From Escherichia phage PGN6866, in sequence record MT127620: a DNA stretch of 64,000 bases; one strand, given 5' to 3'. Shown here piece after piece: positions 2,054 to 10,849 of this stretch. Position numbers and translations under genes: made by a program. The notes beneath the pieces are model-generated. The model was given only the letters and a program-made list of their open reading frames with translations, was not told the origin of the DNA and did no database searches. How positions within the stretch are numbered: the first letter of the stretch is position 1; the number at the start of each line of letters is the position of its first letter.

Positions 2054-2089
2054 TAAAAGAAAAGGCGCTACCCGTTAAGATAGCGCCTT
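2054..2089 (-). terminator. putative rho-independent terminator (minus strand)
   Basis: Inverted repeat AAGGCGCT/AGCGCCTT 2062..2089 followed by T-run on minus strand, just downstream of gene 2112..3011. Confidence 0.4.
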
Positions 2090-2111: not shown

Positions 2112-3011
2112 TTATGCCGCCTGACGTGCCGCCATAATTTCAGCCGCTTTACGCAACACTTCTTCCTCTTCTGCTTTCGCCGCTTGTTCGGTACGGGTAG
2201 CAACCGTTGAAGAGATACGACCGCGCAGACTTTCTAACTTCTCCTGCATAGCTGCAACAGTCTTTTCCATTTCATCAGCGTATGAATCGAGTGATTCTAA
2301 TTCCTTGCTTGATGCGTTCATCAGATAATCATCCGAGATCGCTACCGTTGAGGCCGTGACTTTCTTGATGAGTGAATCAAAGGACTTTTTAACCTTCCCA
2401 ACTTCTTCACTCAGGGCGATAGTGTTATCGCTAGTTGCGCCGTTGCGCTCATCAGCCAGTAATTTGGCTTCAATACGGATTGCATTCAAGCGTTCAACTA
2501 AAGCGTAAATATCCTGATTAAAATCTTCCTTGTTTTTCGCCGGAATTTGCAGGTGTGCCGCCACGTTGTCATTACAACCCTTGTAAAAGTTAGGGTTATC
2601 AACTTCAATTTCACGGCCTAAAGCAAAGTTTTCGAAAGCGTTTGACCAGCGAGCGCGGTTTTGTTCCATTTTGGCCTTAATTTGTGCTTCTTTCGCGTCT
2701 TCTTTAGCTTTCGCCTCACCTTCCAGATTAATCCACTTTTTACGACCATTTGCCGCATCGGTGTTAAACTTGATAGGAGTTAAGAAAGTAATTGCAGTGG
2801 CAATCACATCCATATCACGAAAACGTTCAGTTAACAAGAAGTCAACCGCCGTCTGCAATACGTCCAGCTTTTTACCATTACTGCGGAAGTGCTGCAAGTG
2901 CCCTAACAGGAAGTTAGAAACATCTTGTTTGATCGCCGCGTTATTGCTACGAATGTTGTTAGCCAGTGCGTTAAAACCGGATTCGTTAACCAGAGTAAAG
3001 ATTTTTGCCAT
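2112..3011 (-). CDS. hypothetical protein with coiled-coil-like C-terminus
   Basis: ATG at 3011 (MAKIF...) preceded by AGGTGA; the track start at 3020 is a GTG extension. Confidence 0.5.
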   Translation of the reverse strand: MAKIFTLVNESGFNALANNIRSNNAAIKQDVSNFLLGHLQHFRSNGKKLDVLQTAVDFLLTERFRDMDVIATAITFLTPIKFNTDAANGRKKWINLEGEAKAKEDAKEAQIKAKMEQNRARWSNAFENFALGREIEVDNPNFYKGCNDNVAAHLQIPAKNKEDFNQDIYALVERLNAIRIEAKLLADERNGATSDNTIALSEEVGKVKKSFDSLIKKVTASTVAISDDYLMNASSKELESLDSYADEMEKTVAAMQEKLESLRGRISSTVATRTEQAAKAEEEEVLRKAAEIMAARQAA

Positions 3012-4343
3012 GATATTCACCTTTCAATTGTAAGGGCGCTATTGCCCCGCTCTCTATGAGCTTATTTAAGTCACTATTAACTTAACTATAACCACTCGTT
3101 GTTAAGTAGTTATAGGTAAGCGGGGCGGTCTTATCAGGAGTTAACCTTGCCGCCCCCTTATCCGTGATGTTTCATCTGGTATCTTTAATTAGTCGCTATA
3201 AACGAAGCCGACCTGATAGCGATGATCAATCATCACAATAAGGCTATGCGTCCGACTCTATTTAATTACATTGCTGTAACCGTCGGCAATATCGTCTACT
3301 TTGTTTTCGCTCCCGCTTATCCTTTTGTATCAGCTCTCTATCGCTAGTCATCGCCCACTACGGGATACTATTGCGAAAGAGTCACTAACCGCCTAGTATT
3401 CCGGCGTTTTATATCTTTCGGCGGGTTTACTACATAACCCGACTATGTACTTTCATCTTGTGATGAATCTCAAGCCGTTCACATCGTAAACGTTCGCATT
3501 AAACCTTATTGTTAAATAGCAATTTGCCACTTTTTAACCACTCCCCGCCGCTCTCAATTGAGCGTTAATTCGTCGGGCTTGCCTACCCTGATTAACTTCT
3601 TTCACTGTAGCGCCTTGTTAGCGATGACCGCCGCTACCCTTAACCGTGGGCGATTAGCTTAAGTCTTTGCGTACACTCAATGAATCCGTTTATCAGTGGT
3701 GACGTTTCCAGTAAGGGAATGTAAAACTGTTTACCCTGATAATTTAGGGAGTTTTACGCCGTTTTATCTGGTATGTTATCCGATGGTTATTATCATCTAA
3801 CATATTCAACCGATATAGGAGAATGTTTAAATTATTAAAGAGCGGTAAATCTATCAGTGTGCTTTCTCACACTATGCAACTGTTAGCCGTTGTTACGCTT
3901 TTCACTGAAGCGATGATTTGCTTAGTGAGTGCTCATTATGAATCATGTTGTTTTCGCTGTCAACCGCTTTTTAATCTTTTTTCGTCGTTCCCGCTATTGG
4001 GAGGATATATCAATCAGCTTTATTTGATTGAAGATTAAGCGGTGAGGCTTAACTTATGATTCATATTGTTAAAGAGCGTTTTTTAGCCTTTTATAGTGTC
4101 TGCTAATCACTGCATCATTGAAGGCTTACTGATTCATTAACAGGACGCCTAACCCTGAACTACTCGCTGCACTATGTGCCACCTTTCCCGCGATACGTTG
4201 ATTTGGGAACTTGTTAGCGGTGTATCTGCTAACTTGTGGTTAGTATGGACTACTTTAACCACGTTTGCAACTCTTTTTATCATCTTCTTTTAATTCCTTT
4301 CCCTTATCTCGCGTGAATCTATGCGAAAGGGCAAGATGATAAG

Positions 4344-4359
4344 TTTTTAAAGAGCGGGA
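4344..4359. repeat. copy 1 of 15-mer TTTTTAAAGAGCGGG
   Basis: Identical 15-mer also at 4451..4465; shorter TTAAAGAGCG versions at 3835..3845 and 4069..4078. Confidence 0.8.
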
Positions 4360-4450
4360 TTTTTAAGTCATCGCTGACTATGCTCACTATATATCAGGCT
4401 GTTTTCGGTGTCAATACTCTTTTTGAGAATATTTTCACTTTCTAGCCTGA

Positions 4451-4465
4451 TTTTTAAAGAGCGGG
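4451..4465. repeat. copy 2 of 15-mer TTTTTAAAGAGCGGG
   Basis: Direct reading. Confidence 0.8.
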
Positions 4466-4692
4466 GGCAAGTTTCCTTGCCTTGTATGTTTTACATCGTA
4501 CCCGATGAATTGAAGTATACATTAACCAATGATGGTTGCAATAGGGTAAAGCAAATTATTTTAAACTTTTTTATAGTGGGATAGATAAAAGAACGGGCGC
4601 GCGTGATACATCATAGGAAACGGCTTGTAAAGCAACAATAAGCGTCCTAAAACGCATCACAACGAGCTAAAAGGGAGTAAGGCATACAATCA

Positions 4693-4726
4693 CCTCATAA
4701 AAGAGAAAAGCCTCACTAGGAGGCTT
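4693..4726 (-). terminator. putative rho-independent terminator (minus strand)
   Basis: 7-bp stem AAGCCTC/GAGGCTT 4708..4726 followed by T-rich run on minus strand, downstream of gene 4802..5176. Confidence 0.4.
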
Positions 4727-4801
4727 ACAGGAAGGATTAGAGAATCAGATAAATTATGACCATAGGCATGACTACGGCACAATACAGGAGAAAGATTAAG
4801 C

Positions 4802-5176
4802 CTATGGATTTACACATTGACCGTTACCGGATGCCATTTCATTCATGGACTCATCAAAGAGCGTCAACGATGAGCGCATCAAGTGATCGACCGTAATTTG
4901 CTTACCAGTGGTTTCATTTACCAGTTGAATAGTTTTATCATATGATTGTACATGTTCAAAATCATTTACATGTAAAATAATAACCTTAGGTGACTTTTTA
5001 CCAGTTTCATAGTTTTCTACAATATAGGTGCACTGTAAACCGTCAACCGTAGCAGGGGAGAACGTTGCAGCCTTAACGCTACCCATAGCCGACAGCAGGA
5101 CACCTAACAGGAGAACGACAAGGAAGAAGCCTACAAATACTTTCACTACGAATTTAATAATACCCATGATAATCAA
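4802..5176 (-). CDS. membrane-anchored hypothetical protein
   Basis: 124 aa; N-terminal hydrophobic segment FVVKVFVGFFLVVLLLGVLL. Confidence 0.45.
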   Translation of the reverse strand: MIIMGIIKFVVKVFVGFFLVVLLLGVLLSAMGSVKAATFSPATVDGLQCTYIVENYETGKKSPKVIILHVNDFEHVQSYDKTIQLVNETTGKQITVDHLMRSSLTLFDESMNEMASGNGQCVNP

Positions 5177-5266
5177 CCTTTAGTTAGAGAATGTAAGAAT
5201 ACAGCATATCAGCGACGAATAACGCCACCGTAGCAACGAACAAGCAACGCCAAAAATAATCATGAA

Positions 5267-5542
5267 TCATTGGTTGCTATCCTCGCCAAAAAATGATACG
5301 CTGATTTGTTCCACTTCTTCCAGCGACAGAAGAATCCCGCGTTGGGCTAAATACTTCCCAATAGTTAGATAATCTTGCACTAAGCAGACAATAGGAAAGC
5401 GTATATTTTGTATCTCACCTTTGGAAAGAAAAGACAAATAACCAACGTCGGTTGATTCATCAAAGGATAGTGTAACGCCACCGTAATTATGCGTGTCAAT
5501 CAGCGCAATAGTTTCATTCCCCATAACGTTTCCAATCCTCAT
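5267..5542 (-). CDS. hypothetical protein
   Basis: 91-aa ORF; true start may be the internal Met at 5524. Confidence 0.35.
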   Translation of the reverse strand: MRIGNVMGNETIALIDTHNYGGVTLSFDESTDVGYLSFLSKGEIQNIRFPIVCLVQDYLTIGKYLAQRGILLSLEEVEQISVSFFGEDSNQ

Positions 5543-5744
5543 AATGATTAACTAGTGCCTGATAATCGTCAGATGATAACTCACCGCCTAAATAGGCAAC
5601 GGTTATGCGTGCTTTGTATTCTGACAAATTGCATAGCGCGGGAGCGGATAACCTGCTTTCGCCATAACATCCTAGCACTTCAACGATACAACCGTTTAAA
5701 GATACTGATTTATTAATCACGATACGGTTAGCCATTAATATCAT
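5514..5744 (-). CDS. hypothetical protein
   Basis: 76-aa ORF, short overlaps with neighbours. Confidence 0.35.
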   Translation of the reverse strand: MILMANRIVINKSVSLNGCIVEVLGCYGESRLSAPALCNLSEYKARITVAYLGGELSSDDYQALVNHYEDWKRYGE

Positions 5745-5991
5745 CCTTAATTAGCCCATGATTGAGCAGGTTAGCCAGCGACAAATCACCGTCAATATAG
5801 ATTGATTTGAAATCTTCACGGGTAATTTCGAAATCAGCAAAGGCTAGCCAATCTTTAAGAGGCTGATATTCCATCCTGCAAAAAGTGATAACAGGCAAGA
5901 TTATCTGACCATCAAGTGTATTAAACAGGATAGATTGCCCACCAACAAAACAAGAAAAGCCGTTTGATAATTTAACTTCTTTGATAGCCAT
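5728..5991 (-). CDS. hypothetical protein
   Basis: 87-aa ORF. Confidence 0.35.
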   Translation of the reverse strand: MAIKEVKLSNGFSCFVGGQSILFNTLDGQIILPVITFCRMEYQPLKDWLAFADFEITREDFKSIYIDGDLSLANLLNHGLIKDDING

Positions 5992-6016
5992 TTTTACACT
6001 CCTGAAAATAGGTTAT

Positions 6017-6508
6017 TTATTTACTAGCCTTAATACAGTTGGCTAAATTAACGTGAACGGTATAAACAGCGTTATCAGCGTTATTGTAAACAGTTGTGGC
6101 GATCATTGACTCATTAACTGGGCCATAGCTCACAAGATTGGTAACAGCTTTAACGTCTTTGTAACGTTGTACAGTGCCAAATGTCACCATGTCCGCATCG
6201 TTATCAGTACGCTTGAGAACTAGATCATTGTTAGGCTGATTATCTAACGTTTTAGATTGAAAGAGAACGCCATTATTAGTAACGTTGCTAAATTTCATCT
6301 TTAGCACAATGGTAGTGCCGTCACTATCCGCACCGTTGCAAATCATCCAACCTTTGTTGATGGAACTAACGAAAACACTAGCCGCATCAGTTGCAGGAGC
6401 AGGACTAGCAACAGCCTTGTCAGAAAGAGATGTGACCAGTGCACTAACACCAATCGCTGCAACCAGTGCATAACTTGCCAGATTAACTACCTGCATTGAT
6501 TTAGCCAT
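6017..6508 (-). CDS. secreted hypothetical protein (signal peptide)
   Basis: 163 aa; N-terminal hydrophobic signal-like segment then Ser/Thr/Asn-rich body. Confidence 0.5.
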   Translation of the reverse strand: MAKSMQVVNLASYALVAAIGVSALVTSLSDKAVASPAPATDAASVFVSSINKGWMICNGADSDGTTIVLKMKFSNVTNNGVLFQSKTLDNQPNNDLVLKRTDNDADMVTFGTVQRYKDVKAVTNLVSYGPVNESMIATTVYNNADNAVYTVHVNLANCIKASK

Positions 6509-6561
6509 TTGTGAAGCCTCTTTGATATGTATTAGATAGGGATATAATAGGACACGATTTC

Positions 6562-6753
6562 CTACATTGCAACCATCTTTCTAACTTTCTTGTTACTGAA
6601 TTTAGCGCCGGTAAACTTACTCGTCTTATCTTTCGGGTTTAGCTTGCTATCGGTGAACAACTCGACCACTTCACAAGCAATCAGGGCAAGCAAAGGAAGC
6701 ACTACAGCCATGACCATCATAATCAGGACAACCATTTCTATTACTCCAACCAC
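6562..6753 (-). CDS. small membrane protein
   Basis: 63 aa; strongly hydrophobic N-terminus, basic C-terminus. Confidence 0.4.
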   Translation of the reverse strand: MVGVIEMVVLIMMVMAVVLPLLALIACEVVELFTDSKLNPKDKTSKFTGAKFSNKKVRKMVAM

Positions 6754-7418
6754 TCAATCGATAGCTTCAATTTACTACTACTTAATAAGGAAAGCAAGTG
6801 CCACGGGTAAACTATTTCTACTATCTATATAGGACGGGGAACACACAACCGCAGAACAGACCACGGGGAAACATAGCAAGATAGTGCGGTAGTAATATAC
6901 CACTTAAATAATTAGTTAACTATTAATAGCATTACTCAAACATCAAAGACCATTCGCTACGCTCATGTACGCTGAAAAAAGAAGTAATAAAAGAAACAAT
7001 AAACATCAAACATAATCTTTCCACTTAATTAATACATACATCATTATTGCACTCATAATCATTACTATTGAAACTATTATCAACGTAACTATGGGGGAAT
7101 GGGGTAGTAACTAGGGGGTATTATTAGCTTATTCATAGTGCCTTAATCTAATCATTATACAGTGCTAGCCTTTCTCTCACTCTTTAAAGGGGAACTAAAT
7201 AAACGGGTAGGTAATGTATTGGGTAGTATACACGGGGAAAGAATAACGGGGAGTAGGCACGGGGAAAGGTGGAACGTTGAAAGGGAAGGTAAAGGCATTG
7301 CCAATAACCCTTTTTTAAATGAGGACTCCCCCTTTTTAGGAAACACGCGGGAAGCGGCTAGCCCCATTCGGTCAAATCAGAATTTTAAACTCTTATATAT
7401 AAGGTTGAAAGAGAACTT

Positions 7419-9307: not shown

Positions 9308-10849
9308 ATGTCATTAGATAAACAAATTTATGAAGCTCTAACTGGTAACAACCTTAGTGTAGAGGAAAAGAAAGCACTATTGAATATGTTGAAAGAGCGT
9401 GACCAATGGAGGAAGTATAATAAGATTTTGTCTTTCAAGGCGTATGACTTCCAAAAGAAATTTTATGCAGCAGGATTGAAGCATCGCTTTAGATTCTTGT
9501 GTGCAGCGAACCGTGTTGGTAAATCTTATAGCGAGGCATACGAGTTTGCTTGTCATGTCACAGGTCGCTACCCAACTTGGTGGACAGGATATAAATTTAA
9601 AAGACCTATCTTAGCATGGGCAGTTGGTATTACAGGGGATTCCACAAGGAAAGTATTGCAAAAGGAATTGTTTGGTACACCTATCGGAAAGGATACAAAT
9701 TTATTAGGGACAGGTGTCATTCCTCGTGATGCTATCGTCATTGACACGATAGAACGAGATGGTAACAAACTTCAAATCGTACAAATCAAACATCAAAACG
9801 AAAGAGGAGAGTTTGACGGTTTAAGTACATTAGAATTCCGTTCAACCCAACAGGGTGAACACACATTGATGGGTGCAACAGTTGACTACATTTGGTTAGA
9901 CGAAGAAGATCCATACGAGTCTATGGCTATATTCGCACAGTGCGTCACACGTACACTCACAACTAAAGGTCTAGTTACAATTACAGCTACACCAGAGAAC
10001 GGTTTAACTGAACTGGTAGATAAATTTATGAAAGGTGAAGGGGATGAGAACACAGGTTCTCTGTATTTCCAGAATGCTTCTTGGTGGGATGCTCATGCAG
10101 ACCTAGGTGGACACATCACTGACCAAGATATAAAAGATATGACTGAAGGTATTCCAGCGTGGCAGTTAGAGATGCGTTCGAAAGGTATGCCATTGTTAGG
10201 AAGTGGTTTGATTTATGATGTATCGGATGACACAATTAAATGTGAACCATTCGAAATTCCTGATACGTGGAAACGTGTCTGTGCAATTGATATTGGTATT
10301 GATCACCCAACTGCTGCTGTTTGGACAGCTTACGATGCAAACACGGATACTATCTATGTTTACGACTCATATAAAGAAGGTGGCTTTACTCCAGTGTATC
10401 ATGCTCCAGCTATTAATGGTCGTGGTCAGTGGATTCCTGTCATCCTGCCGCACGATGCGGACAATATTGAGAAAGGTAGTGGCTCATCTGTTGCTCAATT
10501 CTATAAGAATGCAGGAGTTAACGTACAGAGTGAGACCTTCTACAACAAAATTGGAATGGATGGTAAAAAGAACTTCTTTGTAGAACCCGGAATCACAGAT
10601 ATCCGAGAAAGAATGATGAGTGGACGCTTTAAAATCTTTAACACAGCCGCTAATGCTAAGCTATTCGAAGAGAAAGCTAGATATCACCGTAAGGTTGGTA
10701 AGATTATTAAAGAACATGATGACTTAATGGATGCGATGCGCTATTCAGCGTGCTCTGTTACACATCGTGGTCGCTCTAAACATGACGTTAGCTACGGAAG
10801 TGCTTCTCTGTATGAGGCAAACGTAAGCAGATGGAATCAGAGTTACTAA
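9308..10849 (+). CDS. terminase large subunit
   Basis: 513 aa; Walker-A-like NRVGKS, Walker-B-like DYIWLDEED, nuclease-type acidic residues; precedes portal. Confidence 0.8.
   Translation: MSLDKQIYEALTGNNLSVEEKKALLNMLKERDQWRKYNKILSFKAYDFQKKFYAAGLKHRFRFLCAANRVGKSYSEAYEFACHVTGRYPTWWTGYKFKRPILAWAVGITGDSTRKVLQKELFGTPIGKDTNLLGTGVIPRDAIVIDTIERDGNKLQIVQIKHQNERGEFDGLSTLEFRSTQQGEHTLMGATVDYIWLDEEDPYESMAIFAQCVTRTLTTKGLVTITATPENGLTELVDKFMKGEGDENTGSLYFQNASWWDAHADLGGHITDQDIKDMTEGIPAWQLEMRSKGMPLLGSGLIYDVSDDTIKCEPFEIPDTWKRVCAIDIGIDHPTAAVWTAYDANTDTIYVYDSYKEGGFTPVYHAPAINGRGQWIPVILPHDADNIEKGSGSSVAQFYKNAGVNVQSETFYNKIGMDGKKNFFVEPGITDIRERMMSGRFKIFNTAANAKLFEEKARYHRKVGKIIKEHDDLMDAMRYSACSVTHRGRSKHDVSYGSASLYEANVSRWNQSY

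Follow-up and report, generated by a model that had tools for sequence, protein, structure and literature searches.

Four boxA Copies Upstream of a Putative Large Structured RNA in a Non-Coding Spacer of Escherichia Phage PGN6866

The boxA element is the NusB/NusE loading signal of the ribosomal RNA (rRNA) operons (rrn) of E. coli and of the nut sites of phage λ. For rrn antitermination, the boxB hairpin and the GU-rich boxC are accessory and not essential. The gamma-proteobacterial boxA consensus is GYTCTTTAANA (Baniulyte et al., PMC5725501). As described in that paper, in PMC7665894, and in other literature, boxA RNA nucleates NusB–NusE, which, with NusA, NusG, and SuhB, gives a Rho-resistant elongation complex; the same complex shields long untranslated RNAs (rRNA, CRISPR arrays) from Rho and aids co-transcriptional folding. 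Outside rRNA, boxA either protects long untranslated transcripts from Rho or controls the downstream gene from a 5′ untranslated region (PMC7665894, PMC5725501). Here, we describe a 1790-bp gap between genes, positions 3012..4801 of a 64-kb stretch of Escherichia phage PGN6866 (MT127620; the stretch of 64,000 nucleotides (nt) is called the window below), which carries four boxA copies and, behind them, a predicted structured RNA of about 830 nt. We consider it likely that the gap is the main early transcription-control region, laid out like an rRNA operon, and that Nus factors serve to transcribe the structured RNA and the early genes behind it.

The source genome is that of a Kuravirus, a φEco32-like podophage, and the gap lies between coding sequences (CDSs) 2112..3011(−) and 4802..5167(−). 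The region is 97% identical to those of Escherichia phages ES17 and myPSH2311. In φEco32, genes 124 and 125 are both encoded leftward, and the spacer that separates them, 1.9 kb long and without annotation, is the counterpart of the gap; about 2.8 kb lie between this locus and the right end of the genome. An earlier note on this DNA had singled out the gap as poor in open reading frames (ORFs), and indeed its 1790 bp carry no conserved coding signal, with no substitution periodicity where this was analyzed (3012-3983).

boxA Copies and Promoters of the Gene 124/125 Spacer

The earlier note had drawn attention to a 15-mer, TTTTTAAAGAGCGGG, said to occur in two identical copies and two variants. 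The identical copies are at 4344-4358 and 4451-4465 (the end given for the former, 4359, was one base too far), and the variants are at 3832-3846 and 4066-4080. The core, GCTCTTTAA, is found five times in the window, against 0.87 expected, with four of the five within 630 bp, all on the minus strand. On that strand, which is the transcribed one here, the 15-mer reads CCCGCTCTTTAAAAA, the form of boxA. By its sequence, the repeat is boxA read on the opposite strand, and it had escaped recognition because the 15-mer was read on the non-transcribed strand. All four copies are exact to GYTCTTTAANA, and all are on the transcribed strand, with the G at 4462, 4355, 4077, and 3843. The window has two other perfect matches to the consensus, both antisense inside plus-strand ORFs.

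We call the four copies M0 to M3. M0 (4452..4462(−)) and M1 (4345..4355(−)) have the same sequence, GCTCTTTAAAA, each belonging to one of the two identical 15-mers, and M1 lies at about +25 from the predicted start of the promoter P1 described below. M2, (C)GCTCTTTAACA(A), at 4067..4077(−), is also a perfect match and is followed 14 nt later by a hairpin, TTAAGC-loop-GCTTAA, whose stem covaries and whose loop is variable. M3, GCTCTTTAATA, at 3833..3843(−), matches the consensus perfectly as well, and with its flank it reads GCTCTTTAACAATTTA in phages 4E8, TH34, PAS59, KBNP1711, and EK010, i.e., 16 nt identical to the host rrn leader. The host sequence beginning CACTGCTCTTTAACAATTTATCAG has a median of seven sites per E. 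coli genome, and the rrnG copy is about 140 nt upstream of 16S rRNA. When the four phage modules are aligned with the E. coli rrnG leader, boxA is the sole block common to all.

The earlier note had also suggested an early promoter cluster, and a consensus scan finds two near-consensus σ70 promoters in the gap, both on the minus strand. P1, at 4386..4414(−), is TTGACA-17-TATAGT (11/12), with an A-tract just upstream; P3, at 3935..3963(−), is TTGACA-17-CATAAT (11/12), likewise with an A-tract upstream. Their transcription starts are those predicted from the sequence. Both are identical to promoters listed for phage SU10, at 73996 and 73511, respectively. The SU10 paper describes one early promoter at the right end and a terminator after the fourth gene, as in φEco32, and three further σ70 promoters in the same spacer, of which two are identical to P1 and P3. 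The promoter and terminator part of the layout was, therefore, already known, at least as a prediction. Among the 12 aligned isolates, P3 is kept in all except EK5, for which no homologous copy of P1 was scored either.

The terminator is at 4698..4726(−): a stem, AAGCCTCCTAGTGAGGCTT (4726..4708), is followed by a T-run, TTCTCTTTTA, to about 4698, matching the terminator listed for SU10. It closes the right-end early operon, which consists of homologs of φEco32 genes 128-125, as the earlier note had assumed for the operon upstream of the gap. That note had placed minus-strand terminators on both flanks, and the left one is missing, the next terminator on that side being at 2089..2062, after the downstream gene.

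A candidate minus-strand promoter motif had been marked at 4516..4524. It is TAATGTATA, which corresponds exactly to the consensus of the phage σ factor gp36 (quoted in PMC4281155) and has five copies in the window versus 0.63 expected. At the locus, the motif is exact in Bas90 and KBNP1711 and has one mismatch in 4E8, SU7, and PAS59, while φEco32 itself lacks it. The gp36 middle/late promoters are recognized by a single element, tAATGTAtA, which a mapped start follows after 6-8 nt; six have been reported for φEco32, at genes 6, 13, 26, 40, 58, and 68, and the 4524..4516 site is not among them. A degenerate gp36-type motif, TAATGAATC, at 4131..4139(−), precedes boxA M2 by 62 nt, just as the exact motif precedes boxA M0, and 4E8 and KBNP1711 have TAATGAATA at this place. 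The modules can accordingly be written as follows: TAATGTATA at 4524 leads to the boxA at 4462 (M0), P1 at 4414 to that at 4355 (M1), the degenerate motif at 4139 to that at 4077 (M2), and P3 at 3963 to that at 3843 (M3).

This arrangement is conserved. Each of 12 isolates and 5 metagenomic contigs, among them sixteen relatives, has 3-5 perfect sense copies of boxA, despite differing flanks, and all of them are upstream of the same large RNA. Most copies are found either 45-120 nt (up to 183 nt) past the −35 hexamer of a TTGACA-16/17-TATAAT-like promoter (10-12/12) or about 60-70 nt after a TAATGTATA-like site, and a few have no promoter scoring at least 10/12. Downstream of the boxA copies there is about 0.9-1.5 kb with no coding signal. 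The right-end early operon, which is translated, has no boxA after the rightmost early promoter, and this ties boxA to the untranslated stretch.

Phages SU7, PAS59, and TH34 (Suseptimavirus-like) have, as the counterpart of 4360-4800, an unrelated sequence with an ORF of 66 amino acids. The replacement still bears boxA copies, some with an rrn-type TGCTCTTTAA start, so boxA is kept while its surroundings turn over.

Hairpins accompany several of the boxA copies. Upstream of M3, at 3855..3874(−), a boxB-like hairpin with an invariant loop, AGAAAG, and a covarying stem (helix 3, three compensatory pairs) ends 11 nt before boxA; its loop resembles that of the rrn boxB of E. coli, GAGAAAA. Another hairpin, GGCAAG-GAAA-CTTGCC (4466..4481(−)), abuts boxA M0 on the upstream side, its stem having been listed by the scan on the opposite strand, and at the predicted 5′ end of the P1 transcript AGTCA-GCGA-TGACT (4366..4379(−)), which is present in the minimum free energy (MFE) fold. 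These last two have GNRA loops (GAAA and GCGA) and may stabilize the 5′ end or serve as boxB-like elements.

The closest likeness is to the E. coli rrn leader, which also has tandem, very strong σ70 promoters (P1 and P2) with upstream A-tracts, then a hairpin with a GAGAAA-type loop, which only the hairpin of M3 resembles, and then boxA, for which up to 16 nt are identical in phage and host. S4 also belongs to the rrn antitermination complex, beside the Nus factors and SuhB. The rrn operon likewise continues into a long untranslated structured RNA whose 5′ and 3′ flanks pair, as is predicted for the phage. However, an rrn operon has one leader boxA and one spacer boxA, whereas the phage has four within 630 nt; the phage has no boxC; its RNA is unrelated to rRNA (no Rfam match); protein genes follow on the same transcript; and one module may use the phage σ factor.

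Phage λ resembles the locus in that nutL and nutR place a boxA in the nascent transcript shortly after the early promoters, and module M2 is even arranged like a nut site, its boxA preceding a hairpin by 14 nt. In λ, however, the sequence of boxA (CGCTCTTA) deviates from the consensus and depends on N, which must be bound to a boxB whose loop is conserved, whereas the PGN6866 copies have the full rrn-type consensus and the loop of the M2 hairpin is not conserved. No N-like, arginine-rich small protein was seen among the ORFs at 4802-7367, by inspection only, which is a weak test. Among phages, the T7 early region is the closest parallel, T7 being a virulent coliphage podovirus with strong host-type early promoters (A1, A2, A3) clustered near a genome end. 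It has a perfect boxA, CGCTCTTTAACAA, at 812-824, with the A3 start 62 nt upstream and gene 0.3 about 100 nt further on; this boxA is not annotated in the record, and no study of it was found in the literature searched. Unlike the gap of PGN6866, T7 has a single boxA and no large structured RNA, and its first gene is preceded by a leader of about 110 nt. The boxA elements upstream of CRISPR arrays (Stringer 2020, PMC7665894) and in the suhB leader (Baniulyte 2017, PMC5725501) are also outside rRNA, but these are single chromosomal copies, while PGN6866 has several, carried by a phage and associated with a large folded RNA.

A further boxA was seen in ECO319P1, a C3-type podophage (Crifsvirus) of a different family. 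Positions 1-1775 of its genome have no ORFs; at least five DnaA-box-like sequences (TGTGGATAA / TTATCCACA) are found at about 300-560, and one perfect boxA (ACGCTCTTTAATAATCTGG, with a T7-like flank) is at 800, right after a TTGACT-17-TAATAC promoter. Its leader downstream of boxA has a weak folding signal (z = −1.8).

The Predicted RNA of about 830 nt

A non-coding RNA locus was another of the proposals made for the gap, and the predicted RNA strongly supports it, although that this left 0.85 kb appears as one large structured RNA had been missed. The RNA extends over 3033..3892(−), with domain I at 3533-3831, domain II at 3235-3512, and eight 3′ hairpins at 3033-3234. Past boxA M3, nucleotide conservation equals that of the adjacent gene. 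The consensus fold of 12 leaders (RNAalifold) has 254 pairs in about 39 helices, forming two multi-helix domains, and 74 of these pairs show compensatory double changes. In this fold, 98.9% of the sequence-pair cells are standard pairs, versus 33-47% when the partners are slid by 1-3 columns. Doubly changed pairs number 5-10 after sliding and 33.5 ± 3.6 after shuffling, and none of 500 shuffles reaches the observed values. Long-range helices covary too, as in columns 526-531 with 636-641 (6/6 pairs).

Since the consensus structure came from the same alignment, the test was repeated with a structure predicted from the window only. Applied to the 11 other phages, this structure still pairs 73.9% of the changed cells, and pairing survives in 208 of 227 double changes (67 pairs). 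In a control of equal length taken from the gp124 CDS, for which the phylogeny is the same, the corresponding values are 28.9% and 12 of 58 (7 pairs). The coding-region control argues strongly against a phylogenetic artefact, in a sample of 12-17 fairly close sequences (74-97% identity) and with a null that is not fully phylogeny-aware. The leader has an MFE z-score of −5.9 in the sense direction and −4.4 as its complement, and the CDS control scores −1.0. Pairing is 98.9% in the sense and 89.5% in the antisense direction, a difference that arises because 9.8% of the cells are G-U, and this strand preference is consistent with the way the promoters point. Folding that exceeds that of shuffled sequences is also seen between P1 and P3 (z = −4.1), a segment with further covarying hairpins. 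As far as the aligned sequences can tell, an RNA of about 830 nt is conserved across the subfamily, and the compensatory changes strongly support its predicted structure.

No model of Rfam 15, including GOLLD, ROOL, rRNA, introns, and tmRNA, matches anywhere in the window at gathering thresholds, and a permissive search of 2900-4900 gave only matches at chance level (E 1.5-4.9); a tRNA/tmRNA scan found none. Structured RNAs of more than 500 nt are rare, and GOLLD, ROOL, and OLE have for years resisted functional explanation, in part for being found in hosts that are hard to handle. Like GOLLD and ROOL, the PGN6866 RNA is several hundred nt long, has many covarying helices, and is encoded by phages. 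It differs from them in sequence and structure, no Rfam family matching even with E allowed up to 5, and it is found only in virulent podophages of E. coli and Shigella and is not near tRNA genes.

Two sites within the RNA recall boxA. At 3510-3520(−), a boxA-like sequence, GCTATTTAACA, has one mismatch, at a critical C, and is part of an almost invariant block of 37 nt; the block is paralogous to the M2 boxA region (30 nt, 73%) and is reminiscent of the second boxA in the rrn spacer. It probably binds no Nus factors. Near the 3′ end, 3045-3065 (hairpin GCTCATAGAGAGC followed by GGGG) is complementary to M1 (4339-4358; 20 nt, 80%) and to M0 (4455-4466; 12 nt, 92%). Such an “anti-boxA” could, by its complementarity, pair with boxA and mask it. 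The match might be due to chance because both sides contain GCTC/GAGC arms.

Proposed Mechanism and Rival Readings

To account for the motifs, with their orientation and conservation, for the lack of coding signal, and for the conserved RNA structure, we propose the following course of events. The intrinsic terminator would end the small right-end operon. A promoter–boxA battery would come next, made up of the two σ70 promoters and one or two gp36-type motifs, each with a perfect boxA 25-90 nt downstream, and about 830 nt of untranslated structured RNA would then lead into gene 124 and the long leftward early cluster. At each promoter, the nascent boxA RNA would recruit host NusB–NusE(S10), and these, with NusA, NusG, and SuhB, would turn the RNA polymerase into the Rho-resistant, fast, RNA-chaperoning form that makes rRNA. 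The polymerase could then cross 0.9-1.5 kb of ribosome-free RNA without premature Rho termination, and the complex would also help the large RNA to fold during its synthesis. We infer that the host complex loads at each promoter, and that Rho resistance follows, from the rRNA-operon-like layout and the established function of boxA.

Several observations weigh against this proposal. M0 is upstream of both σ70 promoters, so that only the unverified TAATGTATA site or read-through of the terminator would serve it, and M2 has no promoter of its own scoring at least 10/12 in PGN6866. The hairpins next to boxA differ from module to module and, for this reason, only M3 looks rrn-like; a GU-rich element similar to boxC (TGTGTGGG-like) was not found after any of the boxA copies. 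The consensus fold was derived from the alignment on which it was first scored, and the single-sequence test removes this circularity only in part. Finally, the boxA battery and the RNA of about 830 nt appear previously unrecognized in the literature searched (φEco32, Kuravirus, and T7 boxA or antitermination, and large phage RNAs), the promoters and terminator being published predictions, and Savalia 2008 and Pavlova 2012, which that search did not cover, may already describe some of it.

A related objection is that the distance from a boxA copy to the next −35 hexamer is constant, at 47-48 nt between M0 and P1 and 113-117 nt between M2 and P3, which could reflect a role at the DNA level. The motif, which is A/T-rich, might then serve not as an RNA signal but as a promoter element of the UP/Fis type or as the operator of some regulator, from phage or host. 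We judge, however, that the constant spacing reflects conserved blocks. All copies are exact to the RNA consensus, including the GCTC core for which an UP element has no need, and every copy is oriented with transcription; how far a copy lies from the promoter ahead of it ranges between +15 and +90, which is what a signal acting in the transcript would show, and the host rrn boxA is matched over 16 nt by one of the copies. A DNA site therefore seems to us quite improbable. Even less credence can be given to the idea that the gap hides small protein genes, although some records annotate ORFs of 30-40 amino acids here (e.g., EK5) and the plus strand of the window has ORFs of 58 and 71 amino acids. 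Conserved genes of this kind, which the earlier note had named as what would overturn its reading, were not found. Over 3012-3983, substitutions among 12 related phages have no 3-base periodicity in any 150-nt window (p 0.4-0.95; ORFs under 25 codons fall outside this test), whereas the adjacent gene has a strong one in every window (p 1e-4 to 1e-10). In relatives, indels of 1, 5, 7, or 9 bases disrupt the frame of the ORF of 58 amino acids, 4408..4584(+); both ORFs are antisense to the promoters, and the substitutions follow base-pairing instead.

Two of the functions that had been suggested for the gap concern the DNA itself. The idea that the physical genome ends meet in the gap had only the position near one end of the genome map in its favor, and both it and the related idea of a packaging site are refuted by the homolog of the 193-bp direct terminal repeat of φEco32, which lies elsewhere, at 7167..7359 (92% identity). 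This puts the physical ends inside the window, in an assembly permuted relative to φEco32, and 2.4 kb from the gap, with a translated operon (4802..~7100(−)) in between. The sequence beside the terminal repeat homolog, 6800-7166, is ORF-poor and AT-rich too.

A replication origin is improbable, if less decidedly so. The region is long, non-coding, conserved, and beside strong promoters, and ECO319P1 has DnaA boxes in the equivalent ORF-free region. The spacer, however, has no AT-rich unwinding region (GC 0.37-0.44), GC-skew turning point, iterons, tandem repeats, or DnaA boxes, and the selection seen is at the RNA level and strand-specific. The version compatible with these data would have the structured transcript act as a pre-primer, like the T7 primary origin transcripts or ColE1 RNA II, and a conserved RNA fold would be expected of it as well. 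RNA II of ColE1, whose transcription a strong promoter drives, is several hundred nt long and structured, with a fold that matters for function; the PGN6866 locus differs in lacking origin features at the DNA level.

More serious consideration is due to the relation between the RNA and gene 124. The RNA could be a stable trans-acting RNA, a cis leader masking the ribosome-binding site of gene 124, or both. The Shine-Dalgarno and start region of the gene 124 homolog, 3015..3025(−), has a predicted pairing partner in 3840-3850, which flank boxA M3 on its 5′ side. This helix is in both the MFE and the consensus fold, and a duplex calculation finds it possible in 13 of 13 relatives, at −8 to −12 kcal/mol; covariation cannot test it, as its columns barely vary. 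If formed, it would close the whole RNA, akin to the leader-trailer helix of 16S rRNA. In addition, a minus-strand scan finds no terminator between the RNA and gene 124, and the two are linked in every locus examined. One may then ask whether the structure has no independent function and amounts to no more than a long 5′ leader that acts in cis on the gene 124 mRNA, controlling its translation or stabilizing it, with boxA merely protecting it from Rho. We find this unlikely, since two multi-helix domains with about 39 helices in about 830 nt far exceed the needs of known translational operators, the closing helix has no covariation support, and the conserved loops and long-range helices point to a defined three-dimensional fold.

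It is tempting to go further and to suppose that the RNA is of a new class that acts in trans, mass-produced by copying the host’s promoter–boxA design and borrowing Nus factors and SuhB to escape Rho and to fold. We put this forward tentatively, as a possibility that is rather doubtful at present. If true, an RNA with up to three boxA copies (the P1 transcript) could take over host functions, for example by titrating NusB, S10, SuhB, or ribosomal proteins from rRNA synthesis, or by acting as a decoy for RNA-binding or defense proteins. The Gordonclarkvirinae have been reported to be unusually resistant to the defense systems tested.

Returning to the proposal of Nus-dependent transcription from the boxA battery, it would mean, if true, that a virulent phage needs no N-like protein to take over the machinery for rRNA antitermination. 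The proposal also speaks to the question of how early transcription travels through long leftward clusters, since the paper on the related Salmonella phage 7-11 left open how early transcription by the host polymerase crosses them in that phage. The battery gives a mechanism that is directly testable, because the classical nus, suhB, and rho tools exist. The RNA sits in virulent E. coli phages of a subfamily used in phage-therapy work, and members of the subfamily that infect E. coli K-12 derivatives are now at hand (BASEL phages Bas86-94, including Bas90). For annotation, the region is better described as regulatory elements and a non-coding RNA than as strings of hypothetical mini-ORFs.

Distribution and Neighboring Genes

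All 97 phage records that match the region are of Escherichia or Shigella phages, and all belong to the Gordonclarkvirinae (Kuravirus and its sister genera). The number of records with a large terminase of 80% identity or more is also 97, and for this reason the element looks universal in the subfamily. The BASEL phage Bas90 is 94.6% identical over the locus. Salmonella phage 7-11, a more distant relative, has neither a comparable gap nor boxA at its right end. There is no similarity between the region and E. coli genomes at E up to 1, and an invariant 22-mer has no exact match in representative bacterial and archaeal genomes. Scans of IMG/VR gave five contigs only, apparently known isolate genomes, and a metagenome scan with an invariant 21-mer gave eight Kuravirus-like contigs within the known diversity. 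The 21-mer scan also returned three unrelated AT-rich contigs with only 23 nt in common, which we judged to be chance matches. These three JGI metagenome contigs are related to each other, and the exactly 23 nt (AATTGCTATTTAACAATAAGGTA) that they share with the phage RNA are at a short intergenic site, probably by chance.

The first gene after the leader, 2112..3011(−), encodes a homolog of φEco32 gp124 of 299 amino acids. Its Pfam matches are all sub-threshold, PHROGs lists it as of “unknown function”, and a PDB sequence search came back empty; a single-sequence AlphaFold model, with a mean confidence (pLDDT) of 48.6, was too poor for a structure search. At the other side of the gap, a clade of Kuravirus with genomes of 67-69 kb lacks some or all of the right-end operon, i.e., the homologs of genes 125-128. 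The operon is wholly absent from Bas92, and two small ORFs remain in Bas94. The promoter, boxA, and RNA region of these two phages is near the genome end and is probably among the first parts transcribed.

The product of 4802..5167(−) has 121 amino acids and a hydrophobic N-terminus, and many records label its homologs “terminase”; an adjacent protein of 87 amino acids is labeled “polymerase”. Both names look like artefacts derived from PHROG labels, and the real large terminase is encoded at 9308..10849.

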